From assembly GCA_002498125.1 (NCBI GenBank), contig DAGG01000030.1, positions 3 to 64,002 on the forward strand: DNA of 64,000 nucleotides. Reading direction: 5' to 3'. Positions 1-64,000 of the stretch are shown piece after piece. Numbering within the stretch: the stretch's first letter is position 1; every line of letters starts with the position of its first letter. Source of the stretch: Candidatus Woesearchaeota archaeon UBA525 (GTDB lineage Archaea; Nanobdellota; Nanobdellia; Woesearchaeales; UBA525). A model generated the notes under the pieces. That model was not told the DNA's origin, did not search any database, and saw nothing but the letters and a program-made list of their open reading frames with translations. A program made the translations under genes and the position numbers.

Positions 1-756
1 CTCTGTGCTCACGTTACCTATGACCAAACCGAGAGGTGGCAGCTGCCCCTGGCCTGCGGGGCAGTCATCGTTGGGGTCTGTGAAGTAATAGTATCTGGTC
101 TGCGACTGATTCTGCAGCATGGGCAGCAGCAACTGGTAGTTGATGACCTCTCCGTTGAACCCTTGCGTGAAATTCGTGAGCAAGGCTCCGAAGAACAACT
201 TGCCACTTGCATCCTTGAGCGCGACCATGGCAAATGTCTGCGGCTGCCCAGCCTCATCGAGCTTGTACGTGTACGTCCCTGGAGCAGTAAGGGTGAGGCC
301 GCCGAACTGCACCGTGATGTTGTTCGAGAATGTCGCCGTCGCTGATGTGAGACCTGAGCTGTTGAGCCCGTAGAACGCATCGATCTCCGCACGGGTCGCC
401 GGCGTCACTGAAGAGAACACGAGCGTGAGCGGATCATACACTGAAGCATATACCTCGTGAGCTATGTCGGGTTGGAGGCAGTCGAAGAGCAGGTTCTTGC
501 TCATGATCTCCCCGCCACTGAACATGTCGCTCTGCGGGAAGTCATACCCGTCAACACGCACACCGACACCGTACTGGCCTGACCATTCAGTCACAGGGAT
601 GTGATGCGCGATGATCATGGAGTAGATGTTCCCTGCCGAGCCAGAGAAAGATGCGTAGCCAACGTAATCGCCTACGACACGCAACCCTTGGACTGCGAAA
701 AAGACGAGCAGGATGATCATACAGGCATGGAGCGTTTTCTTCAGCGCGGGGTTCAT
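1..756 (-). CDS. Partial CDS (3' end outside the window): secreted or membrane-anchored hypothetical protein
   Basis: Absent from the ORF track because it has no stop in the window. Manual reverse-complement translation from the ATG at 756..754 gives 252 sense codons with no stop down to position 1 (MNPALKKTLHACMIILLVFFAVQG...YYYFTDPNDDCPAGQGQLPPLGLVIGNVSTE). It has a hydrophobic N-terminus and several NxS/T sequons. The ATG overlaps the TGA of the upstream gene (ATGA). Confidence 0.6.
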   Translation of the reverse strand, partial: MNPALKKTLHACMIILLVFFAVQGLRVVGDYVGYASFSGSAGNIYSMIIAHHIPVTEWSGQYGVGVRVDGYDFPQSDMFSGGEIMSKNLLFDCLQPDIAHEVYASVYDPLTLVFSSVTPATRAEIDAFYGLNSSGLTSATATFSNNITVQFGGLTLTAPGTYTYKLDEAGQPQTFAMVALKDASGKLFFGALLTNFTQGFNGEVINYQLLLPMLQNQSQTRYYYFTDPNDDCPAGQGQLPPLGLVIGNVSTE

Positions 757-3704: not shown

Positions 3705-3955
3705 CGTTCTCCCTCCAGTAGTCGTTGCAGTTCGCGGAGGAGCTCCTCTTTGCGCTGCTGGTCTCCCTCTTTGATCCTGCGGCCGACCTCTTCGAGAACT
3801 GTCGATGATTCCTGCTGCGCGTACTTGAGCGCCTTCTGGCGCACGACGCTGCGGACCTGCTCGCTGAGGTCGATGTAGTGATGCTCGCGGGTGAAGCTGC
3901 GCAGCTCACTCACGAGACTGCTGGGCATCTTCACACTCACGACGCGCTCAGTCAC
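3701..3955 (-). CDS. Ribbon-helix-helix (CopG-like) DNA-binding protein with coiled-coil tail
   Basis: N-terminal beta-strand plus two-helix pattern (VSVKMPSSLVSELRSF...DLSEQVRSVVRQ). 4-nt overlaps with both neighbouring genes. Confidence 0.55.
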   Translation of the reverse strand: MTERVVSVKMPSSLVSELRSFTREHHYIDLSEQVRSVVRQKALKYAQQESSTVLEEVGRRIKEGDQQRKEELLRELQRLLEGER

Positions 3956-4140
3956 TTGCGTCCTCCTCTGGATTCGAGCGCGTACTCGCGGCAGAACTCA
4001 CGTATGGCTTCGGAGCGGTTTGCGAAAAGGCCGCGCTGCACGAGTTGATCGAGAACGTTCACCAGCTCATCTGGTAACCTGACATTCACTGTCTCCAAGC
4101 CGTCACTGTGGTCCAAACGTGGTTCTCCTGTATTACCCAC
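3952..4140 (-). CDS. Ribbon-helix-helix (CopG/NikR-like) transcriptional regulator
   Basis: VNVRLPDELVNVLDQLVQRGLFANRSEAIREFCREY is a typical RHH pattern. First gene of a four-gene overlapping operon. Confidence 0.65.
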   Translation of the reverse strand: MGNTGEPRLDHSDGLETVNVRLPDELVNVLDQLVQRGLFANRSEAIREFCREYALESRGGRK

Positions 4141-4148
4141 GTAGTTTT

Positions 4149-4267
4149 TACGTATTACGCAGGTATGTCGTTGCTATCTAGTCACTGAATTTGTAGTACC
4201 TACGTATTTTTTGATTTAAAAAGGTTGCGGGACACTGCACCAAGGAATTATTTTCCATATATACGTA
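4149..4267. promoter_or_regulatory. Three TACGTA palindromes in a divergent promoter region (candidate RHH operators)
   Basis: TACGTA at 4149-4154, 4201-4206 and 4262-4267, inside the AT-rich 188-nt spacer between the RHH operon (minus) and the 4329 gene (plus). TATA-like TTTAAAAA at 4215-4222 and TTTATAAG at 4300-4307. Confidence 0.3.
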
Positions 4268-4328
4268 CATGTTTTCTTACCGGAATTTCAAGGAAGTGCT
4301 TTATAAGAAACACCATCTTACCCCCTGA

Positions 4329-4802
4329 ATGGCCGCCAAGAACGATATCAAGACCACCTATGCCCAACTGGCGAAGAAACACCAGCTCCCGTCATTCGAC
4401 GATCTCAACAAGGACTTCGACATCGACGTCATCGAGGCCGGGACGAAGCACCTCGCCAAGGAGATCGCGAAGAAGGTGTTCGAACGCGTCGAGCTCTTCA
4501 AGAAGATACTAGAAACCGCACTGCAGCCCGACGTCAGCATCCTCAGCATGCAGGAATCGGAGTACCTCACAGAGAACGACCACGAAATCATCGCCGACGT
4601 GCTGCGTAGGCTCATGAAGCTCGACCGCACACTCCTCATCGCAGAGCTGGAGAACGACGACCGACTCTACGTCGGATTCATCAAGGACTCGTACGCAGAG
4701 TGGCCGAGAATAAAGAGAGAGCTCGGACCCATATTCAACCGCATGCTCGGTGGATGGAGCACGAAGCACAAGATCAAGCAGTTCCACCACTACGTGGGAT
4801 AG
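4329..4802 (+). CDS. Hypothetical protein (157 aa)
   Basis: Clean ORF with balanced composition. TTTATAAG sits 22-29 nt upstream of the ATG. No recognisable motif. Confidence 0.6.
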   Translation: MAAKNDIKTTYAQLAKKHQLPSFDDLNKDFDIDVIEAGTKHLAKEIAKKVFERVELFKKILETALQPDVSILSMQESEYLTENDHEIIADVLRRLMKLDRTLLIAELENDDRLYVGFIKDSYAEWPRIKRELGPIFNRMLGGWSTKHKIKQFHHYVG

Positions 4803-10914: not shown

Positions 10915-11058
10915 GGACGTGTAGCTCAGCTTGGATAGAGCACAGCACTCCTACTCCTTATGACGATCATTTCGCTATACCGGCTCGACCGGTTAAACGA
11001 GAGTTAGCCGAAGGAGAGAGTAATGCTGGGGCCGGGGGTTCAAATCCTCCCACGTCCG
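10915..11058 (+). tRNA. tRNA-Arg(CCU) with a 69-nt intron (10954-11022) at canonical position 37/38
   Basis: Manual cloverleaf. Acceptor GGACGTG/CACGTCC is perfect. D arm TA-GCTC-AGCTTGGATA-GAGC. Anticodon stem CAGCA/TGCTG. Loop CT-CCT-A|intron|A. T arm GGGGG-TTCAAAT-CCTCC. Discriminator G. The intron has internal stems (ACCGG/CCGGT, CTCCTT/AAGGAG). Confidence 0.8.
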
Positions 11059-16736: not shown

Positions 16737-17441
16737 ATGGAGCACTGGGACCCTAGGACTAAAGAGGACTTCATCAGGGGAATGGAGGAGAAGGCGTATG
16801 ATGAGACTCTCCGTAACTGCCTCATGAGCAAAGGAGCCCATCACCAGGATCTGGACGACTTAACCCAGGACGCCTACATGCGTGCGTACAAGTACTTCGA
16901 CCTCTATGAGCCAGGCACGAACTTCAAGGCATGGCTATGCACCGTCGGCCAACGTAACATGATAAACCATCACCGCCGACGCCTCATCAAGCCGGAGGAC
17001 TTCAGCCTTGATGCGGAGAATGAGGACGGCTCTACGATGAAAGACGGGCTCTATGGGCACCACACCCCTGAGACAGACCTTGAAATGATGGAGGAGTTCA
17101 GCTACCGCCCGATCATCAGGAGAGCGATCTCTGACCTGCCGCACCAGTGGAAGATGATACTCCTCTCTACAGATATCGAAGGTCTCGGGCGTAAAGAGAC
17201 TGCGGAGCTGATGGGGTTGCCACAGGGGACTGTGCTGAGCAGCATCTACCGCGCAAAGAATCGCATACTGGATTGCCTCGTTGCCGCTTCAGAGGCGGTC
17301 GCTACGGCGGCGAGCGATGAGGAAGCTGCCAAGACATTGGCGGCGGAGTATGGGATACGCGGCGTGGCTTTGGAGAGGAGAGTCTATGACGCAGTGAAGA
17401 GAGCGCGCAGGGTCGAAGAGACAACTGAACAGGCTGCGTAG
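16737..17441 (+). CDS. Sigma-70 family (ECF-type) sigma-factor-like protein
   Basis: Region 2: DLTQDAYMRAYKYFDLYEPGTNFKAWLCTVGQRNMINHHRR. Region 4: LPHQWKMILLSTDIEGLGRKETAELMGLPQGTVLSSIYRAKNRILDCL. About 50-aa acidic/Ala-rich C-terminal extension. Confidence 0.75.
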   Translation: MEHWDPRTKEDFIRGMEEKAYDETLRNCLMSKGAHHQDLDDLTQDAYMRAYKYFDLYEPGTNFKAWLCTVGQRNMINHHRRRLIKPEDFSLDAENEDGSTMKDGLYGHHTPETDLEMMEEFSYRPIIRRAISDLPHQWKMILLSTDIEGLGRKETAELMGLPQGTVLSSIYRAKNRILDCLVAASEAVATAASDEEAAKTLAAEYGIRGVALERRVYDAVKRARRVEETTEQAA

Positions 17442-21497: not shown

Positions 21498-22787
21498 ATG
21501 CAGGAAGGCGACAGGATCAGGTTCACATACCAGCACAAGGAGATGGAAGGAGTCCTCGTCCAGCTCAAAGACGACCATGCTACCGTCAAGCTTGACAGCG
21601 GCTACAATATTATCGTGCCTGTGGAAGAACTCACCGGCATAGAAACTGAACCACTCGAAAGAACCAAGACGCCCCCAGTCAAGGTGAAGCAGGACCCAAC
21701 ACTGCCCAAGGTTTCCATACTCCACACTGGTGGGACCATCGCGAGCAAGGTCGATTACAAGACCGGCGCTGTCGTCGCTCAGTTCAATCCAGAGGAACTG
21801 ATTGCACTCTTCCCAGAGCTATTGGAGCTCGCCAACATCGAGAGCAAGCTCCTCGCGAACATGCAGTCAGACGACATGCGTTTCGCGCACTACAACATCA
21901 TCGCGCGTGCTGTACTCGAGGAGATTAACCGCGGCGTAAAAGGAGTCATCGTCACCCAAGGTACTGACACGCTCCACTACACTGCCGCGGCGCTCAGCTT
22001 CGCGCTCGAGGGACTGAACGTCCCGGTCGTGGTCGTCGGCAGCCAGCGCAGTTCTGACCGGGGCAGCAGCGATGCCGCGACCAATCTCATGGGAGCACTC
22101 CGCTTCATCGGCGAGGGCATACCTGGTGTCTACATCGCCATGCACGAGACGAGCAGCGACGACCAAATCGCTATCATCGACGGCCTCCACGGGCGCAAGA
22201 GCCACTCGAGCCGCCGTGATGCGTTCGTGAGCGTGAACGCACCGCTGGTTGCGCGTATCCCGCCCGGCAAGGTCGAAATCATCGATGCCGCCCGCGTGGA
22301 GCAGCGGAAGAAGGCTGCTGAGCGCAAACCACGCGTCCTGCCATTCAAGGAGGACCTCAAGGTCGGCCTATGGAAGTCCCATCCGCAATCGTTCAGCGAT
22401 GAACTCGCGGTGTACGAGCACTATGATGGCCTCGTCATCGAGGGCACTGGCCTCGGCCACGCACCCATAACTCCTATTGACGAGCACACGCAGGAGCACG
22501 CGCTCATCAGAGAGCGCATCGCGAGCCTCGCCAAGCGCATCCCCGTTGCTATGACGACGCAAACCATCCACGGCAGGGTGAACATGAATGTCTACTCGCC
22601 AGGACGCAGGCTACTGGAGGAAGGCGTCCTCGGTCAAGGGTGCGATATGCCACCTGAGACTGCCTTCATCAAACTCGCGTGGCTGCTCTCCAACTTCAAG
22701 AGAGAGGAGATCGCAGTACTCTACCAGCAGAACCTTCGCGGTGAGATATCAGAACGGAGTCCCTTGGAAGACAGTCACTGCGAGTGA
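21498..22787 (+). CDS. gatD: Glutamyl-tRNA(Gln) amidotransferase subunit D
   Basis: N-terminal AD1-like beta domain followed by an asparaginase domain (ILHTGGTIASKVDYKTGAV, VIVTQGTDTLHYTAAALSF). Confidence 0.9.
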   Translation: MQEGDRIRFTYQHKEMEGVLVQLKDDHATVKLDSGYNIIVPVEELTGIETEPLERTKTPPVKVKQDPTLPKVSILHTGGTIASKVDYKTGAVVAQFNPEELIALFPELLELANIESKLLANMQSDDMRFAHYNIIARAVLEEINRGVKGVIVTQGTDTLHYTAAALSFALEGLNVPVVVVGSQRSSDRGSSDAATNLMGALRFIGEGIPGVYIAMHETSSDDQIAIIDGLHGRKSHSSRRDAFVSVNAPLVARIPPGKVEIIDAARVEQRKKAAERKPRVLPFKEDLKVGLWKSHPQSFSDELAVYEHYDGLVIEGTGLGHAPITPIDEHTQEHALIRERIASLAKRIPVAMTTQTIHGRVNMNVYSPGRRLLEEGVLGQGCDMPPETAFIKLAWLLSNFKREEIAVLYQQNLRGEISERSPLEDSHCE

Positions 22788-22804: not shown

Positions 22805-24175
22805 CTACTCGCAAGGTCGTGTCACAATCACTTGCACAGTCATGACTTTGCCGTCTTGTCCCATGATTGTGCCCAAAGACGCTATGTTATCGCTGCAGCC
22901 CACCATTGTCGCTGGAGCCTTTAGCTCACTCACGGAACGGATTGGTCCAGTGCAGCAGAGCGTGCTGTGCGTATCATTGAGGGTTTGCATCGAGCCGTTG
23001 CGCGCGAACTGGCACACTTGAGAGATGTTGGAGTTGCTGGGGAGCGTGCACCCACTCACACCAGCGCACTGATTGTAATCGCAGAACCCGCCGATGCTGC
23101 AATCGCTCTTGCACTCAGCAGGACGAAGCGTGATATTACGATACGTCTGCGTTGAGAAGAACCCTACCTGCGAGTCATACTTGGCATCATACCCTGTGGC
23201 GTTCCCTGTTAGGTTATGGTAGCCTGGTGTGATGGTGAAGTTGAAGATAGTTGTCACAGTCCTGTAGCTTTCGGTATCGATCCTCACGGAGGCCACCGGG
23301 AGCATGACGCGCGTATTCTCATCGATGACGCGCCCCTCCCAAGCAATCGTCGTAGACGTATTTAGGCACTTGCCAGTACCGCCATCTTCGCAGTAACCGC
23401 CAGTGCACGCGTCGCGTTCACCGAGCACGTAAACCGCAGACGCCGCAAGGTCCGGCGTGCTGTTGTAGGACTTAGTCTGGTTCACGATGCATGTGAAGGT
23501 CGCGTCGCCCTCAGTCATGCCTGCCGTAGGGCAGTTGAAGAACGCCTTGAGGCCAGACCAGCCAGTAATCGTGCAAAGGTTCTTCACGCCACCCTTAGAT
23601 AGAGTCGCGTTTGCGCTCTTGAGCGGCCCAGGGAAGCTACCTGCGGTGTAGGTGCAGTTCCCCTGCACTGTACCCTGCGGTCCGGCACAAGCGAAGCGAC
23701 CGCTCGCTTCAGCATTGCTGATCCCGACTTTGCAGTTCACATCGCCGCGCATCGCGGTCGTGCCACCATCATAATCCGCTTCGCCGTTACCATCATTGTC
23801 GAGGTTATCCATGCAGGAAGTCTCATCGCAGTAGCCGGTGACTGCGTTGATGGTCGTGCCGAGCGGGCACTCGCACGTCGCAGGAGCAGCGCCAGGATCA
23901 ACACAGACCCTGTTCGCGGTGCACGCGATACGGCTTGAGGTGTAATCGCAACGGTCAGTAGCCTCGTTGCACGTGCCCGCAGACGTCTGGTTCAAGCTCG
24001 TCGCGTCCCAGCAGGAATCAACAATCGTCGGGCACACCAATGGCGTCCCACCACCGCAAATGGTACCGCAAGCATTCTGCCAGACCTCATTCTCCATGCA
24101 GAATTTATTCAGCGGACTCGAATCACAAGACTGACCAGTCATGAACTTGCACACGCCACTGCAAGGAACCTCCGG
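22805..24175 (-). repeat. ~1.35-kb paralogous block shared with 27328-28670 (3' thirds of the two giant genes)
   Basis: The C-terminal ~450 aa align colinearly. 22832-22933 and 27355-27456 differ at 6 of about 102 positions by manual alignment. Confidence 0.8.
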
Positions 24176-27082
24176 GCTCGCACACGAAGGAGTGAACGTC
24201 CGGACCTGATTCGTACCCGACTGGTACGCGTAAACAGTATTCACCCAGCACGTAACCGTGTGCTGTTGGGGCAACGTCGTCGCAGGACACTGGAAACGAC
24301 CAGTATTCGCGTCGTCCCATTGCACCCACGGGCAATCAGCAGTCGCACCACCAGGATACGTAAGTGTCACACCCACATGCCATACTGGCGCAGGAGTATC
24401 ACACGTGACCTGGAACGGCTGCCCGGCCGTCACAGCAGGAACAAGCAGATTGCTCACCTGAATCGGACAACCACGATCGCCATGAGCACCAGTGCCACGA
24501 CCATCATAATCATACTCACTATCAGTCTGATCATCATCGCTGTTCAAGCACGCGTTGTTACCATCAGCGCCATTCTTCGCAGGATCCTCAAGGCACTTAC
24601 CATACGTCACACTCCACGTCGTGCCTGTGGGGCAGGAGCACACACCTTGGCCCTGGCAGGTCTTAAAACCATCAGCCTGGCAGTTTACATCAGTGTAAGG
24701 ATTAGAGCAGCCACTCGATGTGCAGGAAGACCCAGAATACTGGCGGGCCGTTGTCGTGGAGAGGCAGTAGCTCGTCGGGGTATTGCACGTCGTCTCAGTA
24801 TACGACGGAGAGCAAGCACTCTGGCCAGCAGGACAAGTACTACTCGTATAATCACGGAAGACATTACCAATACAAGTATCCGCAGGAGGATTACACGTGA
24901 GATCAGTATACGGATGCGAACAACCGCCTGCCGTGCAAGATGAACCGGTGTAATCGCGTAGTTTACCACCAACACACGTATCTGCCGGCGTGGTGCACGC
25001 GGTGTCAGTGTAAGCGGGGATGCAGGAACCACCACTGCATGACGAGCTTGTATAATCGCGGAAAGTGCTGCCGATGCAGTAATCAGCGGGCGGAGTGCAG
25101 GTCACATCAGTATACGGATGCGAGCAACCACCTGCGGTGCAGGATGAACCGCTATAGTCACGTAAGACACTGCTCGAGAGGCAGGCATCTGCCGGCGTGG
25201 TGCAAGCGGTGTCAGTGTAGTAGTTCGTACAAGAAGTCCCGCCAGCCAGGCAGGTAGCACTCGTGTAATCACGGAACGTACTACCGCTGCAGTAATCAGC
25301 CGGGAGGATGCAAGTGATGTCGGTGTAAGAAGGCACGCACGTATTCTGGCCCGCGGGACACGTCGAACTCGTGTAATCGCGAAGCTTGCCACCAACACAA
25401 GCATCAGCCGGAACGGTGCAAGTGTAGTCAGTGTACTCCGGATTGCAGGAGTCTATCCCCTCATTACACCAGCTGCTCGTGTAATCACGGAACTTCGTGC
25501 TCACACAGGTGTCTGCAGGGACACTGCAGTAGAGATCATCGCTAGTGCAGTAAGAAGTGGTCTGCCCAGGATTCACGCACTGTTCGTTCGTGGTGCAGTA
25601 GAGAGTGTCAGCACAGTCGGAGTTACTGTTGCACACAACACAATTCCCAGTGCCTGTGTTGCAGACCTGGCCGCCACCGCACTGTGAGCTGCTCGTGCAG
25701 CCAGGGCAGTCAGCGGGGCAGTTGGTCCTGGTCTCGCCAGGATTGCAGACACCATTACCACATTCCCAGCACTTATTGTCACCGCCTTCGGAGGCCCTGC
25801 GGAGGGTCACTCCTGCCTCACAGTGCAGGGCGTAATCGTTGTTACCGGTCGTATAACGGCCACCATAACCGTCAGCATAATAGGGAAACCCCGGGTCAGT
25901 GATCATGATATTGCATGCGATATCTGTGTTGGGAGGAATATTTTCAGGGCGGGGAAAAGGAGCCATGCCATCAGCACCGCAACTATTGTAGTTGCAACCG
26001 TGCCAACACCTCCCGTCATCGCAGGTGAGCCAGTACGCTGTAGGATTGCCACTCGTGTCCCATGCACGCGCATGGCAAGTGCCTCCTGCGAGTTGTGGAT
26101 AGCTCCAGGTACCGGGGCCGCTCAAGATTTTGCACTCATAAGGGGGAGTGATTGGGATGCCACCACCTATTTCGCGGCATATCTCCCCCGCGCCTGAGGA
26201 ACAGATATTACCGCAGCCTCCGCAATTGTAATCATTATTCTGCGCGACAGGGTTGCCGCCGCAACATATCTCATTGCCACCTATATTGTAATTGTTGCTC
26301 CGCGGAGTCCAGGACGTTGTGGACGTGGAGCTGTCGCACAGTTGGCAATCATTGTATGGGTTCGGGGCGCCGTCAGAGTAGCACTGTCCTCCGATAGTGC
26401 AGGTACCTGCACCGCCGCAAACGCAGGAACCGCTCTGGCAGATTGTCCCGGTGCCGCAAGAAGCGCCGTTCGCGACACAGGTGCCACCGACCATGCAACC
26501 GCTGCAGACGCAGGAACCGCTCTGACAAGTCATCCCGCTGCCGCAAGAAGCGCCGTTCGCGACACAGGTGCCGCCGACATTGCAGCTTCCGGAGGTGCAG
26601 CACAATCCTGTTCCTGCGCAGCTCGGGGGGTTGGGCGGTGTTGTTCCGCCGACATTGACGTAACCCGACTTGCACCCGCCACTGCAAGTGATACCGTTGT
26701 ACGTGTAGGAGCTACTCGGCGGCTGGTTATAGCTTCCGCACGAGTCGCCATTCCCCCAGCAGACGTCGCAGACATCCGGAGAACCGAAGGTGCAAGTACC
26801 GTCACAGGATAGCTGGCCCTGACCTCCGCAAGGAACGCATGGATATCTTGTCTGATAGCCGCAGCCCAGAGCAGTACAGCAGCTCAAGGCGTTCGCCGTG
26901 TCGCATCTTGTGCCTGCCGGGCAACTGCTACAGGCGAGAACTGCAGCGCCGCAAGCGGGATCATTGTCAACAGAATCACATACGGGCGGATCGCAAGCCG
27001 CCTCAGAAGATTGCATCGATATCAGGAAGAGAAGAGTGATGACTAGCGGACTGATGACCGGCGCCCACCCATATCTCCCCAT
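22805..27082 (-). CDS. Giant secreted cysteine-rich modular protein, paralog 1 (1425 aa)
   Basis: Signal peptide MGRYGWAPVISPLVITLLFLISMQSSEAA. Cys-knot-like modules, 8 tandem 34-36-aa units, Asp/Gly acidic loops and a carboxypeptidase-regulatory-like domain. No TM anchor. CTTTTTAAATATC about 25 nt upstream. Confidence 0.85.
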   Translation of the reverse strand: MGRYGWAPVISPLVITLLFLISMQSSEAACDPPVCDSVDNDPACGAAVLACSSCPAGTRCDTANALSCCTALGCGYQTRYPCVPCGGQGQLSCDGTCTFGSPDVCDVCWGNGDSCGSYNQPPSSSYTYNGITCSGGCKSGYVNVGGTTPPNPPSCAGTGLCCTSGSCNVGGTCVANGASCGSGMTCQSGSCVCSGCMVGGTCVANGASCGTGTICQSGSCVCGGAGTCTIGGQCYSDGAPNPYNDCQLCDSSTSTTSWTPRSNNYNIGGNEICCGGNPVAQNNDYNCGGCGNICSSGAGEICREIGGGIPITPPYECKILSGPGTWSYPQLAGGTCHARAWDTSGNPTAYWLTCDDGRCWHGCNYNSCGADGMAPFPRPENIPPNTDIACNIMITDPGFPYYADGYGGRYTTGNNDYALHCEAGVTLRRASEGGDNKCWECGNGVCNPGETRTNCPADCPGCTSSSQCGGGQVCNTGTGNCVVCNSNSDCADTLYCTTNEQCVNPGQTTSYCTSDDLYCSVPADTCVSTKFRDYTSSWCNEGIDSCNPEYTDYTCTVPADACVGGKLRDYTSSTCPAGQNTCVPSYTDITCILPADYCSGSTFRDYTSATCLAGGTSCTNYYTDTACTTPADACLSSSVLRDYSGSSCTAGGCSHPYTDVTCTPPADYCIGSTFRDYTSSSCSGGSCIPAYTDTACTTPADTCVGGKLRDYTGSSCTAGGCSHPYTDLTCNPPADTCIGNVFRDYTSSTCPAGQSACSPSYTETTCNTPTSYCLSTTTARQYSGSSCTSSGCSNPYTDVNCQADGFKTCQGQGVCSCPTGTTWSVTYGKCLEDPAKNGADGNNACLNSDDDQTDSEYDYDGRGTGAHGDRGCPIQVSNLLVPAVTAGQPFQVTCDTPAPVWHVGVTLTYPGGATADCPWVQWDDANTGRFQCPATTLPQQHTVTCWVNTVYAYQSGTNQVRTFTPSCASPEVPCSGVCKFMTGQSCDSSPLNKFCMENEVWQNACGTICGGGTPLVCPTIVDSCWDATSLNQTSAGTCNEATDRCDYTSSRIACTANRVCVDPGAAPATCECPLGTTINAVTGYCDETSCMDNLDNDGNGEADYDGGTTAMRGDVNCKVGISNAEASGRFACAGPQGTVQGNCTYTAGSFPGPLKSANATLSKGGVKNLCTITGWSGLKAFFNCPTAGMTEGDATFTCIVNQTKSYNSTPDLAASAVYVLGERDACTGGYCEDGGTGKCLNTSTTIAWEGRVIDENTRVMLPVASVRIDTESYRTVTTIFNFTITPGYHNLTGNATGYDAKYDSQVGFFSTQTYRNITLRPAECKSDCSIGGFCDYNQCAGVSGCTLPSNSNISQVCQFARNGSMQTLNDTHSTLCCTGPIRSVSELKAPATMVGCSDNIASLGTIMGQDGKVMTVQVIVTRPCE
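24680..25530 (-). repeat. Eight in-frame tandem units (102-108 bp, 34-36 aa, 4 Cys each) inside paralog 1
   Basis: Units follow C-x-x-P-A-D-x-C-x(4-5)-[FL]RDY[TS]-x-S-x-C-x(4-6)-C-x-x-x-YT[DE]-x-x. Examples are CTVPADACVGGKLRDYTSSTCPAGQNTCVPSYTDIT and CILPADYCSGSTFRDYTSATCLAGGTSCTNYYTDTA. They are visible on the plus strand as recurring GTRTAATCRCG. Confidence 0.85.
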
Positions 27083-27132
27083 ATACCTGTCAGCACCAAT
27101 GATATTTAAAAAGCTTCCGAGAACAGAATACT

Positions 27133-27145
27133 GAAACCTTTATAC
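27133..27145 (+). promoter_or_regulatory. Orphan GAAACCTTTATAC promoter-like motif between the two giant genes
   Basis: Same 12-13-mer as the promoters of both tRNA-Thr genes, smc and valS. No recognisable gene lies downstream on the plus strand. Confidence 0.25.
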
Positions 27146-27327
27146 TTCCGGGCTCCAGGAAGGAACACTGGGATTCGGCTTCCCGAGAGCCATACCCCGG
27201 CGCTCGGCGGTGATTTCGCAGTGTCTCCTGCAGTGATAGGGTTCATCGCTGCGCTCGTCAGCCACTCCTCGCGGGCATTCTCATCATTGTTTTCAAAATG
27301 TTCTCGGGGGAGAATCGTACGTAGCAC

Positions 27328-30300
27328 TCACTTGCAGGGTGCAGTCACGACTACCTGCACAGTCATCACTTTGCCGTCTTGACCCATGATTGTGCCCAAA
27401 GACGCGATGTTATCGCTGCAGCCCACCATTGTCGCTGGAGCCTTCAGCTCGCTCACTGAGCGAACTGGACCGGTGCAGCAGACAGCACTATGCGTATCAT
27501 TAATCGTCTGCATCGAACCATTGCGCGCGAACTGACAGACCGGCAAGATGTTCCCATCAGAAGGCAACGTGCAACCGTTCACGCCAGCGCACTGGTTGTA
27601 ATCACAGAACCCGCCAATGCTGCAATCACTCTTACACTCAGCAATACGTAATGTGATATTATAGTAGGTCTTGTTTGAGAAGAATGGCACCTGCGAATCG
27701 TACTTTACATCATACCCGGTAGCATTGCCAGTCAGGTTGTGGTAACCTGTAATCACGTTAATGCTGAATGCTGACGTGACAGTCTGGTATGCACCCTTAT
27801 CTACCCTGACCGAACCGACAGGGATGATTGTACGGGTGTTCTCATCGAGGAGCTGTCCTTCCCACGTGACATTATTGAGGCAGATACCTGTGAGAGGATC
27901 CTCGCAGTATCCGATACTGCATCGGTCGCGCGGGCCTCCCAAGTACACTGCTGACGCCGAGAGATCCGGCGTGCTGTTGTAGGAGTTTGTCTGGTTCACG
28001 ATGCACGTGAAGGTCGCATCGCCCTTGCTCATGCCTGCAGTGGGGCACCTGAACAATGCCGTAAGGCCAGACCAGCCAGCGATCGTGCAAGAGTTCTTCA
28101 CGCTGCCTTTAGCTAGAGTGGCGTTCGCACTCTTGAGCGGCCCAGGGAAGCTGCCTGCAGCGTAGGTGCAGTTGCCCTGGACAACTCCAGCAGGACCTGC
28201 GCAGCCGTCCGTGGCTCGTGCCTCGCTAATCCCGACTTTACAGTTCACATCGCCGCGCATCGCGGTCGTGCCACCATCATAATCCGCCTGGCCGTTACCA
28301 TCATTGTCGAGGTTATCCATGCAGGACGTCTCATCGCAATAGCCAGTAGCAAGATTGATGGTCGTGCCACTCGGGCACTCGCACGTCGCGGCACTAAGAC
28401 CGGGTTGCTCACAGACCTTATTCATCGGGCAAGCCACGCGGCTTGACGTGTAATCGCAACGGTCAGCAACCTCATTGCACGTACCAACAGAAGTACGATT
28501 CAAACCAGTAGCATCCCAGCAGGAGTCGACAATTGGAGGACAAGTGTACGCATTGCCACCACCACAAGTAGTACCGCACTCATCCTGCCAAACCTCATTA
28601 ACCATGCAGAACAAATCATCGCAAGGAAGACCGGTCTGTGGCTCTTTGCAGACACCGCTGCAAGAACTGTTCGGAGGGGCGCATGAAGGAGTGAACCCGC
28701 GGGTCTGTTCGCCCTGGCCCGTGAGGTTATAGGATCTGGCATAGTTGACATAGCACCGCGCAGTATAATCCTGCGGGAACGCAGGCGCGGGGCAGTTGAA
28801 CGACATGGTGTTACCAGACCACGTAGTATCGGCGCAAGTGTACTTCGTGCCAGGCGCCGAATTGAGATAGTACTCAGCACCGATGCTCCTGAGATTCCCT
28901 ACGTTCGTCGTGCAGGAGAGCGGGAATCCAGCCCCAACAGTCGGTGCAGGAGTGCTCATGGACGCGATGCCGACCTTGCACTGGAAGTCGCCGTGTGTTG
29001 TCCCACTGTTACCATCGTAATCCTTCTCATCCTCTGTTCCATCGAAGAGATTATCGTCATTGATCGTGTTGGCGCAGTAGCTCGGATGCTCAACGCAGCG
29101 GCTGACACCTAGCCTATCCACGCCGGCAGTGGTGTTTGTAGGACAGCTCGGCGTGAAAGTCGTTGACTGATCAGTTCCTGCTTTGTAGGATTTTGCTGTA
29201 TCGACGAAGCAGGTCGCAGTATAGAGCTGAGTGTACGTGGGCGCGGTACAGTCGAATGTGATGGTGTTACCGACCCAGCTCGCTCGCGGCTCACAAGATA
29301 CTGTGCTCGGACCAGTGACGCTCACCCCGATGCTTCGAACGCCAGCAGGACTGGCGGTGCAAGTGACTGTGAATGCATCTCCTGCTCTCGGCGGCGAAGG
29401 AGAGACGCTGATGGCAGTGACTGCGACCGGACATCCGGCATCGCCCTTGACCGTCCCAGAACCGGCATAGTCGTACTCGCCGTCGCCTTGGTCATCGAGA
29501 CCACCAGTGCAAGCGTTCAGGCCATTTGTACCAGTCTTCGCGGGGTCTTCCAAACACCTACTGTACGTCGCACTCCACGTCGTACCGGTAGGACACGCGC
29601 AGGATGCGCTAGTAGGTCCAGCAGAGCCGTCGGGATCAGAGCACACCTGGTAGCCGGTGCAGGAGATGATGTTGTACGCGCAGGTGCTTGATGCTGTGCA
29701 GGTCGATGTATAGTCCTTCACGGCCGTGCTGTTATGGCAGATGCTCGGCTTCGTGCTGCAATCGCCGCAAGTGTAGGTGCCGTCGCAGCCGTCGCTCACA
29801 GTGCCGCACTCCTTCGTGCCGCACGCCTCTGACTGAGTCTTCAGGTCAGGGCAGCTCGGGTCTGTGACGCAGGATCCTCCCAGGCAGGTATAGCCTGCTG
29901 AGCACTGCAGGCCTGTGCCACAGCTCACATCAGTGCAGTGTGAAAATGGACTGGAGCTGAAGTACTCGACACCACAAGCCTTGGTCGCTGCAGAATCGCA
30001 GAGGCAAGTCTTCGGCTTGCAGAGGACCCGGATGCTATCGCATATCATGCCATAGGAAGTTCCGCCTGTGGCATTGAGGTAGTTCCTCCTTGACCCTGAT
30101 ATCTCAGGGAACCTCGAAGTATTGTCCGGTGATCCGCAGCAGACATCGTCGGCGTATATCTCCTGCTTAACGCTTGGATGCATGTTCCAGTTCATGCAAC
30201 CATAGCTTGGGCCGCCACCCGTCTCCTGGCCTGAGTATTTAGAGACGTTCAATGTGTCGTCATAAGGTTGATGCATGCTAGGATAGTAGGTGCAACTGAT

Positions 30301-31647
30301 ATCAGGAACGTTCACGAAAGCGGGGCTGCCGGTGGATGTCGTGGTGAAGTTAATCTGCTTGATGGTACTGACACAAGGGTCCTGGTCCTGGAGACCGCAG
30401 TTACGTATGCAGACGCCCCCGACATTATCATAATGAGGGGGGCAGCTTGAACTGGACGTGCAGATAGGAACAGACATGGGGCTTACACAGCTGAACCCTT
30501 CATAATAAGGAGGCGTGGTCCGCGTCACGTCAGAAGCGCTGCCAGTATCCACCTGACAGAGCTTGCCCTGCGCAGTCTCACTGCCGATTGTGCGGAATCC
30601 AGGTAGGCAATTGAGATTGTTCGTGCCGGTCTTTATGCCTTGGCACTCATTGAGTCTAGGATCTGTATCACCCCATGCGCAACGATGACCACCCGAAATC
30701 TCCGGCCACATATCCGCTCCACCGCAAGTATAACGACAGTTTCCACTTGAGCAGGTGTTGGCGCTCTCACACGCTGTTCCGCAGATATTGCCGCAGGAAC
30801 CGCAGTTGAAGACGTCACTGCTCAAGTCCTTGAAATCAGTGCCGCAGCAGGTCTTGCCGTAGTCTGTGGAGCCGAACGGCGCGGTGCTGCCGCTACTCAC
30901 ACACAACCAGTTCCCATCCTTGACTGTGTTGCAGCCGGTGCAGGGACAAGCGGGCTGTCCTAGACTCTGCTTGCCACAAGTAGTCCAGCGAGAGTCGGAT
31001 CCACAGACATAGGTTTGTGTGCCTACTGTTTCAGTCTCGCCAGTTACGTCGCATTGACGGAAGATGCCGTCGTCACAGAGGAAGCTGTTAGACCAGCTGC
31101 TTCCGGGTGCGGTACATCCATCCCTCGATACGCAATAACTTGAACTCGGGCAGCAACCGGCGTAGTAGTTGCCTGAGCCGCCGAAATTCAAGGGTTGACT
31201 ACTCTCTAGCTTTGTCCATACCTGAGTGCTGCCGCCGGAACAGCCAGAGCAGGTCATGGAAGGAGTCAGGTCGGGACCGTAGTAGGAGCACTGGCAGAGG
31301 CTGCTCTGGCACACCGACGATTGAGCAGGGTCGGCATCGCAATCGTACCCACAGGAACCGCAGTTATCGGGATTATTGCGCGTGTCTGTTAAGACATTGT
31401 TACACTCGCACTGTGATCTCGTCTTGTCGCCCACGCCCTCTACGCAGCATGTGTACGTATCACAAGTACCGCCGGCGCAGTTGCTGGTACAAGTCGCCGC
31501 AGAGATATAGACACCAGTACCTACGCCTATGTCAGGGCAGAGATTGGCAGGATCGGTGCATTCTCCTGGTGCGGCAGTCACTGATCCCGGAAGCGCGAGA
31601 GCTAACGCCAGTAGAAGAAAACATAGCGCTAAACGTACCCCACCCAT
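27328..31647 (-). CDS. Giant secreted cysteine-rich modular protein, paralog 2 (1439 aa)
   Basis: Signal peptide MGGVRLALCFLLLALALALPGSVTAAP. NCGSCGxxC motifs, three acidic-loop plus beta modules ending in TFTPSC, and a conserved C-terminal third shared with paralog 1. Confidence 0.85.
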   Translation of the reverse strand: MGGVRLALCFLLLALALALPGSVTAAPGECTDPANLCPDIGVGTGVYISAATCTSNCAGGTCDTYTCCVEGVGDKTRSQCECNNVLTDTRNNPDNCGSCGYDCDADPAQSSVCQSSLCQCSYYGPDLTPSMTCSGCSGGSTQVWTKLESSQPLNFGGSGNYYAGCCPSSSYCVSRDGCTAPGSSWSNSFLCDDGIFRQCDVTGETETVGTQTYVCGSDSRWTTCGKQSLGQPACPCTGCNTVKDGNWLCVSSGSTAPFGSTDYGKTCCGTDFKDLSSDVFNCGSCGNICGTACESANTCSSGNCRYTCGGADMWPEISGGHRCAWGDTDPRLNECQGIKTGTNNLNCLPGFRTIGSETAQGKLCQVDTGSASDVTRTTPPYYEGFSCVSPMSVPICTSSSSCPPHYDNVGGVCIRNCGLQDQDPCVSTIKQINFTTTSTGSPAFVNVPDISCTYYPSMHQPYDDTLNVSKYSGQETGGGPSYGCMNWNMHPSVKQEIYADDVCCGSPDNTSRFPEISGSRRNYLNATGGTSYGMICDSIRVLCKPKTCLCDSAATKACGVEYFSSSPFSHCTDVSCGTGLQCSAGYTCLGGSCVTDPSCPDLKTQSEACGTKECGTVSDGCDGTYTCGDCSTKPSICHNSTAVKDYTSTCTASSTCAYNIISCTGYQVCSDPDGSAGPTSASCACPTGTTWSATYSRCLEDPAKTGTNGLNACTGGLDDQGDGEYDYAGSGTVKGDAGCPVAVTAISVSPSPPRAGDAFTVTCTASPAGVRSIGVSVTGPSTVSCEPRASWVGNTITFDCTAPTYTQLYTATCFVDTAKSYKAGTDQSTTFTPSCPTNTTAGVDRLGVSRCVEHPSYCANTINDDNLFDGTEDEKDYDGNSGTTHGDFQCKVGIASMSTPAPTVGAGFPLSCTTNVGNLRSIGAEYYLNSAPGTKYTCADTTWSGNTMSFNCPAPAFPQDYTARCYVNYARSYNLTGQGEQTRGFTPSCAPPNSSCSGVCKEPQTGLPCDDLFCMVNEVWQDECGTTCGGGNAYTCPPIVDSCWDATGLNRTSVGTCNEVADRCDYTSSRVACPMNKVCEQPGLSAATCECPSGTTINLATGYCDETSCMDNLDNDGNGQADYDGGTTAMRGDVNCKVGISEARATDGCAGPAGVVQGNCTYAAGSFPGPLKSANATLAKGSVKNSCTIAGWSGLTALFRCPTAGMSKGDATFTCIVNQTNSYNSTPDLSASAVYLGGPRDRCSIGYCEDPLTGICLNNVTWEGQLLDENTRTIIPVGSVRVDKGAYQTVTSAFSINVITGYHNLTGNATGYDVKYDSQVPFFSNKTYYNITLRIAECKSDCSIGGFCDYNQCAGVNGCTLPSDGNILPVCQFARNGSMQTINDTHSAVCCTGPVRSVSELKAPATMVGCSDNIASLGTIMGQDGKVMTVQVVVTAPCK

Positions 31648-31720
31648 ATCTATGCGCCAGAGAAGTTTATTTAAATAGTTTCTGAACAGAAGTCACATGC
31701 AGAATTTGTAGCTCCTCACT

Positions 31721-31734
31721 GAAACCTTTATAAG
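31721..31734 (+). promoter_or_regulatory. BRE/TATA promoter of tRNA-Thr(UGU)
   Basis: GAAACCTTTATAAG ends 25 nt upstream of the tRNA 5' end. Confidence 0.5.
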
Positions 31735-31758: not shown

Positions 31759-31830
31759 GCCTCCGTAGCATAGCAGTGGTGCGTCTGACTTGTAATCAGA
31801 AGGTCGGGAGTGCAACTCTCCCCGGGGGCT
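31759..31830 (+). tRNA. tRNA-Thr(UGU), no intron, non-canonical T and D loops
   Basis: Acceptor GCCTCCG/CGGGGGC with one G-U. D stem GCAT/GTGC. Anticodon arm TCTGA-CTTGTAA-TCAGA. T arm GGGAG-TGCAACT-CTCCC. Discriminator T. Confidence 0.65.
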
Positions 31831-31831
31831 C

Positions 31832-32569
31832 TTGGAGACCATCATCATCGCGCTTGCAGTGCTCGCGACAGCAGCCGGCGGCATGCTGGCCTTGCGGTTC
31901 ACGAAGTACATGCACCACTTCAACGCCTTCGCCGCAGGCATACTGCTCGGGGCGGCCTTCTTCGAAATAATCCCTGAGGCAGTGGAACTCGGCGACGCGC
32001 ACACAGTCTCCGGAGCGGTCATCGTGGGTTTCCTGGCATTCTACGCGATGCAGCGCTTCACCATCATCCATAGCTGCCATGGCGAGCATGATCGCCACGC
32101 CCACGACCATGAGTGCAGCGGCACAGGCCACACCCATAATATCGGTATCATCGGAGCGGCAGGACTCGCGGCGCACCGATTCCTGGACGGCGCAGCGATA
32201 GGGTTCGGTTTCGCAGTCAACCCGCTCCTCGGCCTCGCCATTGGCATAGCGGTCATCGCCCACGGCTTTGGCGACGGCGTCAGCACCGTAGCCATCATGC
32301 TGCGGCACAAGAACAGCAAGAACAGGACCATGACCCTACTCGCCGTCAGCGCAGTCGCTCCACTCGTCGGCGCCCTCCTGACACTGAACATGTCCATCTC
32401 GCAGTCGCTCCTAGGCATGCTTCTCGGGTTCTTCGCAGGTGTGTTCATCTACCTGAGCACGTCAGATCTCCTGCCAGAAGCGCACCACAGCACGCACAGG
32501 TATAGCGTCTTCTTCACGACAATAGCTGGCGCGGCATTGATATTCATCGTGAGCAAGCTCATCCATTAA
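31832..32569 (+). CDS. zupT: ZIP-family divalent metal (zinc) transporter
   Basis: HRFLDGAAIGFGF and HGFGDGVSTVAIM motifs, a His-rich loop (HSCHGEHDRHAHDHECSGTGHTH) and 7-8 TM helices. The apparent TTG start lies 2 nt after the tRNA 3' end. The first ATG (31883) would remove TM1. Confidence 0.8.
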   Translation: METIIIALAVLATAAGGMLALRFTKYMHHFNAFAAGILLGAAFFEIIPEAVELGDAHTVSGAVIVGFLAFYAMQRFTIIHSCHGEHDRHAHDHECSGTGHTHNIGIIGAAGLAAHRFLDGAAIGFGFAVNPLLGLAIGIAVIAHGFGDGVSTVAIMLRHKNSKNRTMTLLAVSAVAPLVGALLTLNMSISQSLLGMLLGFFAGVFIYLSTSDLLPEAHHSTHRYSVFFTTIAGAALIFIVSKLIH

Positions 32570-38996: not shown

Positions 38997-39106
38997 TGCG
39001 CCGGCTGGGAATCGAACCCAGATCAGCAGCTCTCTTCGGACACGAAGAGCCACGAGGACTCCCGCGTACGTGGAAGGCTGCGGTCCTACCACTAAACGAC
39101 CGGCGC
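38997..39106 (-). tRNA. tRNA-Gly(UCC) with a 39-nt intron (39032-39070) at 37/38
   Basis: Acceptor GCGCCGG/CCGGCGC. D arm GTTT-AGTGGTA-GGAC. Anticodon stem GCAGC/GCTGC. Loop CT-TCC-A|intron|A. T arm CTGGG-TTCGATT-CCCAG. Discriminator A. Confidence 0.85.
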
Positions 39107-60299: not shown

Positions 60300-60901
60300 T
60301 AGAATGAGAGGATGCGTCCCAGGATGAGGCCGACGATGAGGCCGAAGACCAGTCCGTACATGAAATCGCGCACGATCATGCGGCTCGCATCATGGTCTTC
60401 CAGCGCGGGCTGCGCGGCCGACGTCTGCGTACCGAACAGCTCTTCGCGCACCTTGCCTTCTATCTTCGGTTCGCTGGCGTTCTCCTCGATGATGGTGAAA
60501 TCAGCGGTCTCAGCCGTCCTCACGCCTTGCGCAGGCTCTATGCTCGGCACCTCCTCCACAGCGAGTCCTTCTCCGGCCTCGGCGCCGAGAGGTGACGCGT
60601 AGAGGTCCTGCTCAATCCGCGACTGCATGTCGGAGCGCGCAGCGGTGATCGGTCTCGGATGGAGGTGGTCGTTGATGATCTCGACCGTCTCGACGATGCT
60701 CGTGACCTTCTGCAGGTCATCGGCGAGCCGCTCATCCTTGTGCACATGACGTATCCATGCCGCAAAGTCATTCTTCTGCGCGTTCACGTGATGATAGAAT
60801 TCCTGATAGCTGACACGCTCGATCTTCTCCTTGAGCTGCTCGACCGTGGCTACAGATTCTCCATCGCGGAAGTGGAACTGTTTCTCATACGGAATGTCCA
60901 T
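60299..60901 (-). CDS. Hypothetical protein: conserved ~60-aa N-domain, acidic linker, C-terminal TM helix
   Basis: N-domain ...VATVEQLKEKIERVSYQEFYHHVNAQKNDFAAWIRHVHKDERLADDL is paralogous to the C-domain of the next gene. TM helix FMYGLVFGLIVGLILGRI. Confidence 0.5.
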   Translation of the reverse strand: MDIPYEKQFHFRDGESVATVEQLKEKIERVSYQEFYHHVNAQKNDFAAWIRHVHKDERLADDLQKVTSIVETVEIINDHLHPRPITAARSDMQSRIEQDLYASPLGAEAGEGLAVEEVPSIEPAQGVRTAETADFTIIEENASEPKIEGKVREELFGTQTSAAQPALEDHDASRMIVRDFMYGLVFGLIVGLILGRILSF

Positions 60902-60936
60902 AGGTATTCCCCCAGCCCTCCGCTGGGAAACCCGCT

Positions 60937-61320
60937 TCAGTCATGCCCCGCCATGTGGCGGTAGATGACGAGCTGCAGGTGCTTCTTGTCGCCGGTGCCG
61001 AGCACTTTACGTGCGAGCTCTACGTCCTCGAACACGTCACGGATCCAGTTGTGGAAGTCATTCCTGTCCGCAGTGACGTGGTGGTGGAATACGTGGTCCT
61101 CGAGTTGATCGAGGATGCTCGCGAGCTCAGCGACGTTCTTGACCGGTTGGCCGTTGGCCAGTACGAAGTACTGCCCTTCTGGTATATCACGCGTCAAGTT
61201 GTATATGCGTACACGTGATGCGACCGGTTGTGTCGCTGGTCTCGACGCCGCCTTGCCGCCTGCCTTCTTGGCCGGTGCCTTCTTGGCCGGTGCCTTCTTC
61301 TTAGATGCCAATTTCCTCAC
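60937..61320 (-). CDS. Hypothetical protein: Lys/Ala/Pro-rich basic tail plus the same conserved ~60-aa domain
   Basis: MRKLASKKKAPAKKAPAKKAGGKAASRP is encoded by a 15-nt direct repeat at 61262-61291. It is followed by ...VKNVAELASILDQLEDHVFHHHVTADRNDFHNWIRDVFEDVELARKV. Confidence 0.5.
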   Translation of the reverse strand: MRKLASKKKAPAKKAPAKKAGGKAASRPATQPVASRVRIYNLTRDIPEGQYFVLANGQPVKNVAELASILDQLEDHVFHHHVTADRNDFHNWIRDVFEDVELARKVLGTGDKKHLQLVIYRHMAGHD

Positions 61321-61374
61321 CCCTCCTCTTATCCGATGCTCTTGGATTTATAAGGATTTTGATTATTTCCGTCG

Positions 61375-63872: not shown

Positions 63873-64000
63873 TTCCCTGTCTAGGGCTAGCAAGAAGACT
63901 TGCTACAACCCCACTCCACCTATTTTTACCAACATTTACGTGCACGTCTTTATAAATCTTTAGTAGGTTTGATATCGTCAAGGTTACCATTTCCCGACGA

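Follow-up and report, generated by a model that had tools for sequence, protein, structure and literature searches.

We know of little on how DPANN archaea, Woesearchaeota included, attach to cells or surfaces, and of no characterised surface proteins from the lineage. Large secreted, cysteine-rich hypothetical proteins are common in the genomes of DPANN archaea and of the Candidate Phyla Radiation. Among described systems, the nanohaloarchaeal SPEARE proteins stand out as large extracellular proteins of host-associated nano-archaea; they measure 8,900-9,400 amino acids (aa), are membrane-anchored, carry a VirB4/TraG-like ATPase and Ig-like modules, and have been proposed to bind host cells (PMC10266531). 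Here we describe two adjacent genes, A and B, on the minus strand of a 64,000-nucleotide stretch of contig DAGG01000030.1 from Candidatus Woesearchaeota archaeon UBA525 (the window), each encoding a very large cysteine-rich protein. Judged from their sequences, A and B are members of a rare, undescribed archaeal family that has so far been found in Woesearchaeota-type genomes. The reading that we prefer, and to which we give about an even chance, is that the two proteins are secreted, disulfide-locked surface fibres or adhesins, in which a conserved C-terminal unit would dock or assemble and variable N-termini would bind targets. The genes and their putative export signals are as follows.

22805..27082, minus strand: paralog A, 1425 aa with 144 Cys (open reading frame (ORF) list, composition)
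27328..31647, minus strand: paralog B, 1439 aa with 127 Cys, 126 without the signal peptide (ORF list, composition)
26999..27082, minus strand: A residues 1-28, Sec-type signal-peptide-like, MGRYGWAPVISPLVITLLFLISMQSSEA↓A (hydropathy, read by eye)
31573..31647, minus strand: B residues 1-25, signal-peptide-like, MGGVRLALCFLLLALALALPGSVTA↓A (hydropathy, read by eye)

Both ORFs lie where an original prediction, made from the DNA alone, had placed them in the ORF list and have the lengths that it gave, and its count of 13 cysteines within the first 100 aa of A was reproduced. Cysteine accounts for 10.1% of A and 8.8% of B, whereas the remaining long ORFs in the window average 1.07%; composition and module alignments bear out the extreme cysteine richness and the modular build that had been described for the two proteins. 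At the stop-codon frequency of 0.030 seen over all frames of the window, the log10 probability of 1425 codons without a stop is about -19, a length so far beyond chance that A and B can be taken as real genes. The N-terminus is the sole hydrophobic segment in each protein (hydropathy, KD19, 1.9 in A and 2.3 in B), with an n-region Arg in both and the c-regions SEA↓A (A) and VTA↓A (B). Past residue 40, the maximum KD19 falls to 1.22 in A and 0.99 in B, so neither protein appears to have a transmembrane (TM) helix or a hydrophobic C-terminal signal. The KD19 profile and a cleavage pattern judged by eye thus agree with the earlier description of a signal-peptide-like N-terminus and no TM helix in both proteins, and we infer that A and B would be exported via an N-terminal Sec-type signal sequence. 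The fetched relatives with a complete N-terminus (P0023, P0025 and P0031) all begin with a signal-like segment as well, and Cys makes up 8-9% of their residues.

With the A/B core alignment as query, HMMER was run exhaustively against 1.84 billion cluster representatives and yielded 38 relatives at E<=1e-3, with 24 at E<=1e-10. A C-terminal unit was found in ~30 proteins, in nearly all of which it occupies the extreme C-terminus, usually ending ...Y..C[EDKS], and in nearly every member one to three copies of a second element, the M module, lie upstream of it. These elements define the family signature, namely the M module, a carboxypeptidase-regulatory (CPR) beta sandwich and a new Cys domain. 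Full-length relatives contain 7-9% Cys, and member lengths include 971 aa (P0023), 1029 aa (P0025), 710 aa (P0031) and 1200 aa (P0014). Full-length searches of A and B against Pfam (E<=1), NCBIfam and PDB sequences returned nothing but a sub-threshold match to Myxo_Cys_RPT, and neither Pfam nor NCBIfam gave an S-layer family match, in keeping with the expectation that no characterised enzyme or S-layer family would show full-length homology. The claim that the proteins belong to no recognisable family therefore holds for curated families over the full length; it does not hold beyond that, as there is a rare homologous family of 38 representatives through which most module types become recognisable.

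A pattern scan of genome contigs (GTDB species representatives) located one relative locus, labelled Woesearchaeota, and back-translated pattern scans gave no relatives in genome contigs with B and P0012 as queries, none in metagenome contigs and none in IMG/VR viral contigs. The family loci examined sit among archaeal housekeeping genes (RNase P p30, TBP, primase and ribosomal proteins), range in GC from 44% to 67%, and hold one member each at the six other loci examined. The comparison of related loci for tandem paralogs and copy number that had been proposed thus marks the pair as lineage-specific; rather than the multi-gene system first envisaged, A and B are a tandem duplication of a gene present just once at each of those six loci. 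Public gene calls cover only the C-terminal parts of the two proteins (P0048 the last 335 aa of A, P0010 the last 330 aa of B), which helps explain why the family has been overlooked, and it was not described in the searched literature on cysteine-rich, extracellular, surface or giant proteins of Woesearchaeota and DPANN.

The C-terminal unit divides into two domains.

23120..23350, minus strand: A 1245-1321, transthyretin-like or CPR beta sandwich (model, Foldseek, profile)
22808..23119, minus strand: A 1322-1425, C-terminal Cys-rich domain (30-sequence alignment, AF2 model)
27331..27912, minus strand: B 1246-1439, comprising a CPR-like sandwich (1259-1335) and the C-terminal Cys domain (1336-1439) (alignments)

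The C-terminal units of A and B are 78% identical. An AF2 model of A 1236-1425, built on the 30-sequence family alignment, reached a pLDDT of 90.2 and a pTM of 0.67, with pLDDT values of 95-97 in the sandwich. Against the PDB, Foldseek matched A ~1245-1321 to 5aq0, the transthyretin-like domain of human carboxypeptidase D (E=3e-5, TM 0.80 on the target, rmsd 1.7 A), and its other matches include domains of that type. The family profile likewise matched carboxypeptidase D among PDB sequences (E=7e-8), and among 30 family members, 13 match PF13620 at E<=0.01, the best of them at 3e-12. In A itself, residues 1226-1325 stay below the Pfam gathering score (CarbopepD_reg_2, 16.8 bits vs a cut-off of 32.2; E=0.007), and a module-by-module Pfam scan of A and B at E<=10 gave nothing but this weak CPR match. 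With model, fold match, profile and relatives in agreement, the CPR-like sandwich that had been predicted near the C-terminus is upheld, and A 1245-1321 is modelled as a seven-stranded prealbumin-like sandwich.

The Cys domain that follows spans ~105 aa and has eight invariant or nearly invariant cysteines (1324, 1328, 1334, 1339, 1345, 1357, 1376 and 1377 in A numbering). A further pair, Cys1396 and Cys1424, co-varies: 23 sequences have both cysteines, 7 have neither and none has just one, as would be expected if a disulfide fastened the C-terminal strand to the rest of the domain. Aligned with 28 other members along the entire C-terminal unit, A and B keep both the eight cysteines and the co-varying pair. 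The modelled domain has pLDDT values of 91-97 through residue ~1385 and of 69-83 in the final beta hairpin. It has no PDB sequence or Pfam match, and among the best 50 PDB and BFVD Foldseek matches, obtained with the two-domain model as query, none has the length and rmsd expected for it. The domain may represent a new fold, a hypothesis for now since the query held two domains and only the best 50 matches were compared.

Upstream of the C-terminal unit lie the M modules, each made up of an acidic MopE-type Asp/Gly loop and a ~100-aa beta module with six conserved Cys.

24158..24667, minus strand: A 806-975, M module 1, with a CPxGTTW lead-in, the acidic loop and a beta module ending TFTPSC (alignments)
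23894..24157, minus strand: A 976-1063, conserved Cys-rich linker with a degenerate RDYTSS-type unit (alignments)
23399..23893, minus strand: A 1064-1228, M module 2, with a CMDNLDNDGNGEADYDG...GDVNC loop and the beta module (alignments)
27913..29619, minus strand: B 677-1245, with M1 (677-836), M2 (837-999), linker (1000-1082) and M3 (1083-1245) (alignments)

The copy numbers first reported for this unit, two in A and three in B, were recovered; the [TG]FTPSC ending that was thought to be common to all occurs in only three of the five modules. Across 29 M-module copies, G60, C64, C86 and C137 are invariant, and C37, C109, C124, D42, D50, D52, D61, W114, G117 and Y145 nearly so. The original likening of the acidic loop to calcium-binding repeats gains support from relatives, in which the homologous loop matches the putative metal-binding motif PF11617 (P0016 3e-19, P0011 8e-10, P0031 1e-8), and the loops of A and B retain the Asp/Gly pattern (DNLDNDGNGEADYDG...GD..C) together with the flanking Cys. 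The D-x-D-x-[DN]-G-x-x-D-x-D spacing recalls the calcium-binding loops of thrombospondin type 3 repeats and dockerins. Seven strands are predicted in the beta part by a low-confidence AF2 model; AF2 of the 620-aa shared core with an A/B-only alignment gave a pLDDT of 32 and was left out of the fold search. An M-module profile searched against the PDB gave only marginal matches to antibody VH domains (E>=0.006), a similarity that may reflect no more than an Ig-like beta pattern. The M module also occurs in other extracellular proteins, in company with TIG, beta-helix, cohesin/dockerin or LamG domains or an archaeal type IV pilin N-terminus, and one protein of 4898 aa, anchored by a C-terminal TM segment, has at least seven M modules alongside TIG and beta-helix domains.

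By BLASTP, homology between A and B is confined to the C-terminal ~620 aa, which are 64% identical, rising to ~80-90% where conservation is highest within the last 450 aa; the N-terminal ~800 aa do not align. The two can thus be called paralogs, as had been done, for the C-terminal ~620 aa, whereas their N-terminal ~800 aa are unrelated. Over the shared region, dS is 0.55 at its lowest and reaches saturation, and dN lies between 0.06 and 0.34, with values of 0.06-0.16 over the last ~150 aa, the best-conserved part. Synonymous divergence of this extent combined with low dN argues for an old duplication with both copies under purifying selection. A recent duplication or gene conversion of the pair was considered and is ruled out by synonymous sites near saturation. 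These comparisons indicate that A and B are, as far as sequence can tell, selectively maintained, expressed-looking paralogs.

The N-terminal parts that set the two proteins apart are cysteine-rich.

25529..26998, minus strand: A residues 29-518, unique Cys-rich N-terminal region (sequence comparison)
24668..25528, minus strand: A residues 519-805, array of eight ~35-aa repeats, each containing four Cys (fragment self-BLAST, in-register listing)
29620..31572, minus strand: B residues 26-676, unique Cys-rich N-terminal region, unlike the N-terminus of A (sequence comparison)

Within A 29-518, an 87-bp tandem repeat (26411-26584; 1.9 copies, 88% matches) encodes GGTCVANGASCG.G..CQSGSCVC and accounts for the duplicated unit beginning GGTCVANGASCG that had been pointed out before. 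A single bacterial-type repeat of the form C.I.G.CY..G..NP.N.CQ.C (the CTIGGQCYSDGAPNPYNDCQLCDSSTSTTSW unit) follows at A ~225-258, and a single STIG1-like CC...NCGGCGNIC knot at A ~272-294; B has two STIG1-like NCGSCG knots, at residues 95 and 281. Knots of the NCGxCG type, listed earlier as one of the building modules, are thus present, just once in A and twice in B. The STIG1-like family PF04885 gave no Pfam match on A, B or the N-terminal segments of either; relative P0031 matches it (E=2e-10), and what A and B have in common with P0031 is just the short CC...NCGxCGxxC motif. The module types named originally were all found, and the list had overlooked the eight-copy array of A 519-805, whose ~35-aa unit has the consensus C.xPADxCxGxxFRDYTSSxCxxGxxCxPxYTDxx and recurs as single copies at B ~640-665 and in relative P0031. 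The N-terminal regions of eight other members gave no phmmer match to A or B at E<=10. A word-indexed homolog search returned zero matches for B and, for A, only bacterial proteins with one Cys repeat at ~168-260.

That bacterial repeat is an unannotated ~45-aa unit of the form C.I.G..Y..G..NP.N.CQ.C.P..S...W...dG..CG.G.vC..G.C. It occurs in long arrays in bacterial proteins P0001-P0009, some carriers of which end in an FGE-sulfatase domain (PF03781), and isolated copies are found at A ~168-260 (window ~26303-26581) and in family members P0014 and P0015.

The layout of variable N-terminal and conserved C-terminal parts would also suit a reverse topology, in which the N-terminus is an uncleaved signal anchor, the variable half a stalk and the C-terminal CPR and Cys domains a distal ligand-binding tip. 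Such an orientation would account for the missing C-terminal anchor, the eight-copy array of A looks stalk-like, and strongest conservation in the C-terminal unit (dN 0.06-0.16 over the last ~150 aa) would be expected of a binding site for a conserved ligand. We nevertheless regard it as quite unlikely, because short h-regions of ~14-17 residues give way to Pro/Gly and to the small-x-small sites SEA↓A and VTA↓A, as is typical of cleaved signal peptides, and the relatives have a like N-terminal pattern.

Once the predicted signal peptides are taken off, each of the five full-length members has an even number of Cys (144, 126, 84, 80 and 64), an outcome with a chance probability of ~3%. The distribution of NxS/T sequons is uneven along both proteins. 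In A there are none in the first 1000 aa, where shuffling predicts 11.8 +/- 2.9, and 13 in the last 425 aa, where 5.4 are expected (P~0.001); in B the last 439 aa contain 12 vs 5.0 expected, an enrichment of ~2.4-fold over the last ~430 aa of both proteins. One of these sequons is kept in 21 of the 30 members; in A it reads N1369-D-T. The proteins had been described as sequon-rich, which is accurate only for the C-terminal third; there is no overall enrichment. These observations support, without amounting to proof, the reading of A and B as extracellular, disulfide-bonded proteins whose C-terminal part would be glycosylated.

Cysteine at 9-10% of residues would also be in line with released, soluble Cys/Asp-rich proteins that scavenge metals or act on competitors. 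No anchoring signal was found in either protein, relatives carry the PF11617 "Cu-binding_MopE" motif, and a ZIP metal-transporter gene lies divergently beside B (31832-32569). We consider this role improbable: the even Cys counts and the co-varying terminal pair favour structural disulfides over metal thiolates, the ZIP neighbour is not kept at other family loci, the motif in A and B lacks one defining Cys and goes undetected by Pfam, and the M module is found elsewhere in cell-bound architectures such as the TM-anchored 4898-aa protein and a protein with a pilin-like N-terminus.

Each gene of the pair has two short upstream elements in common with the other.

27103..27110, minus strand: TTTAAATA, resembling an archaeal TATA box, with its end 20 nt ahead of the start codon (ATG) of A
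31668..31675, minus strand: TTTAAATA, with its end 20 nt ahead of the start codon (ATG) of B, the spacing found in A
27130..27144, minus strand: 15-mer TATAAAGGTTTCAGT upstream of A
31718..31732, minus strand: identical 15-mer TATAAAGGTTTCAGT upstream of B, shortly before the divergent tRNA-Thr gene

In the window, TTTAAATA has five matches vs 0.14 expected and TATAAAGGTTTCAGT two vs 0.03 expected. With a TTTAAATA box and a TATAAAGGTTTCAGT copy of its own, each gene looks like a separately promoted unit. The transcripts are probably leaderless, and TATAAAGGTTTCAGT may mark a regulator site or an additional promoter that has been kept since the duplication.

Strong TATA-like boxes, together with a length of ~1430 aa, a signal peptide, beta-rich modules and sequons clustered at one end, are also what S-layer or other lattice-forming envelope glycoproteins would display, with the C-terminal cassette as lattice or anchor region. 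Foldseek further gave a weaker match to a beta sandwich of Sulfolobus SlaB (8qox_B, E=1.7e-3), and to our knowledge no S-layer protein of Woesearchaeota has yet been identified. We judge an S-layer role unlikely all the same. The SlaB match is confined to the generic sandwich, no S-layer family was matched in Pfam or NCBIfam, and the C-terminus is not hydrophobic; the unrelated N-terminal halves are a poor fit for a lattice unit; and a core envelope protein would be expected lineage-wide, whereas this family is very rare (38 in 1.84e9) and missing at the corresponding loci of the closest relatives.

The pair is flanked by a convergent gatD (21498-22787) on one side and, on the other, by a divergent tRNA-Thr (31759-31831) followed by the ZIP transporter gene (31832-32569). 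The window encodes both GatD and GatE; the best GatD matches are 64% identical in one metagenome-assembled genome (MAG), then 46-53% identical, in MAGs mostly labelled Woesearchaeota or Nanoarchaeota, and by its gene content the window is evidently archaeal and closest to Woesearchaeota-type DPANN genomes. All other scanned neighbours of A and B are housekeeping genes, and the bulk GC of the pair equals that of its surroundings.

The pair might instead be carried by a virus or mobile element, perhaps as receptor-binding proteins, or serve as the target of a diversity-generating retroelement (DGR). A tRNA-Thr gene abuts it, its codon usage is atypical, CPR-type domains are known from tail and structural proteins of viruses, and the gatD 3' flank bears differing secreted Cys-rich genes in relatives. 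We hold this origin to be highly improbable. Overall GC matches the surroundings, the neighbours are housekeeping genes both here and around members elsewhere, and no integrase, reverse transcriptase or capsid gene is present among the ORFs scanned; no relative was found in IMG/VR, and the sole PHROG match is negligible and falls in the low-complexity repeat array. For a DGR in particular, the window has no template-repeat-like copy outside the pair, the C-terminus is conserved rather than hypervariable, and no C-type-lectin fold is among the Foldseek matches listed.

The gatD flank was also compared among related genomes, in which other secreted Cys-rich proteins are encoded beside gatD (L001 13117-14283; L005 11306-14587 and 6056-7987; L006 4127-5281). 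Most relatives have gatD and gatE side by side; in L005 one of the Cys-rich genes separates the two. The 3' flank of gatD appears to be a site that surface-protein genes have occupied repeatedly. Homology of these proteins with A and B was considered, and phmmer found none; the A/B family has no copy at the corresponding loci of the closest relatives.

Several other features of the window and of related contigs were recorded. A 234-aa ORF at 16737-17441 on the plus strand, between gatE and cdc48, matches Sigma70_r2 (2e-10) and Sigma70_r4_2 (1.5e-8), so that its product is a bacterial-type sigma-factor-like protein amid archaeal genes. A 983-aa ORF at 753-3704 on the minus strand has a signal-like N-terminus, a PKD domain and only 8 Cys, and its product, probably likewise secreted or at the surface, differs in type from A and B. 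Rfam tRNA matches of 110 nt (38997-39106, minus strand) and 144 nt (10915-11058, plus strand) were unreported by ARAGORN, and these tRNAs probably carry introns in the archaeal style. A glycogen-metabolism cluster at 56722-63893, with a GDE_C amylo-1,6-glucosidase, a glycogen synthase, GH57 and GT4, is unusual for an archaeon described as reduced. In L076, positions 2064-4754 encode an 896-aa product with Plug and TonB-dependent-receptor barrel domains (Pfam). The rest of that contig looks archaeal (TBP, RNase P p30), and the protein may be an oddity or the contig chimeric.

The secreted-fibre or adhesin reading of A and B can be set out as a sequence of steps. Sec would export both proteins, and their paired cysteines would give a rigid, protease-resistant extracellular rod, with acidic loops that may bind Ca2+ or another metal and so stiffen the module junctions, and with N-glycosylation of the C-terminal third. 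By analogy with C-terminal sorting and docking domains, the invariant C-terminal unit would dock the protein on the cell envelope or drive its assembly. The variable N-terminal half would then be the exposed, lineage-specific end that contacts other cells or particles, and the tandem pair would supply two different heads on one common base. We advance only tentatively, and with considerable doubt, the bolder proposal that the C-terminal unit is a new archaeal surface docking or assembly domain displaying interchangeable knotted heads without a membrane or lipid anchor, and that the pair presents two heads for two targets, for example host cells.

Several points weigh against the preferred interpretation of A and B as anchored, disulfide-locked surface proteins. 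Known anchoring signals were looked for in both (a C-terminal TM helix, PGF-CTERM and a lipobox) and none was found, and signal-peptide cleavage was judged by eye only. Disulfides are assumed for an organism that may live in anoxic settings, and no thiol oxidoreductase is present among the window ORFs scanned. PF11617 gives no match on A or B, even at E<=10, and the central Cys of the MopE-type loop (DNDCDG) is replaced in both. GC at 4-fold sites is 0.57 in A and 0.55 in B, the lowest in the window, compared with 0.705 +/- 0.047 (minimum 0.61) in 36 other ORFs. No neighbour gene is conserved at the eight family loci examined, and a docking partner is accordingly hypothetical.

For two giant proteins formerly listed as hypothetical, the analysis provides a high-confidence model of the C-terminal unit and a testable hypothesis of a shared base with variable heads. 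A and B thereby become a well-defined handle on the surface biology of Woesearchaeota, though the organism is uncultured and their function inferred.

Compared with known systems, the closest likeness is to the metagenomic Woesearchaeota and DPANN proteins P0011-P0034, which are true homologs that combine M module(s), the CPR sandwich and the Cys domain in the same cassette, and differ from A and B in being encoded by single genes rather than a tandem pair, in having unrelated N-termini, and in sharing 25-34% identity with A in the C-terminal unit. SPEARE proteins are like A and B, as we read the latter, in being large and extracellular; unlike them, they reach 8,900-9,400 aa, are not Cys-rich, bear an ATPase and are membrane-anchored, and no sequence relationship between the two groups was found. 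Single modules have counterparts in better-known families. A 1245-1321 has the fold of the CPR or transthyretin-like domain (PF13620; 5aq0) and matches it by family profile, whereas in A it forms one ~80-aa spacer among 1425 aa with no peptidase domain, and the match is uninformative on the function of the whole protein. The M-module loop of relatives corresponds to the MopE motif PF11617, a type common in myxobacterial and archaeal surface proteins, and A and B keep its Asp/Gly pattern; the ~100-aa beta module that always follows the loop lies outside PF11617 and has no Pfam model. The CC...(D/N)xxNCGxCGxxC knot, present once in A and twice in B, resembles the STIG1-like domain PF04885, whose model does not detect A or B, and it makes up a small fraction of their N-terminal regions. 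The CPR domain, the MopE motif and the STIG1-like knot are generic extracellular building blocks and carry little functional information.

For the arrangement as a whole, the T9SS C-terminal domain (CTD), dockerin and SLH offer a likeness by analogy only, in that each places a compact, conserved, beta-rich unit at the extreme C-terminus of proteins with diverse N-terminal parts. These are bacterial systems with dedicated machinery; the A/B family has no sequence or fold match to them, and no such machinery or partner has been identified for it. Modular Cys-rich surface-type proteins of ultrasmall archaea were already known, and what is new here is the defining cassette together with one domain that has no detectable relative.

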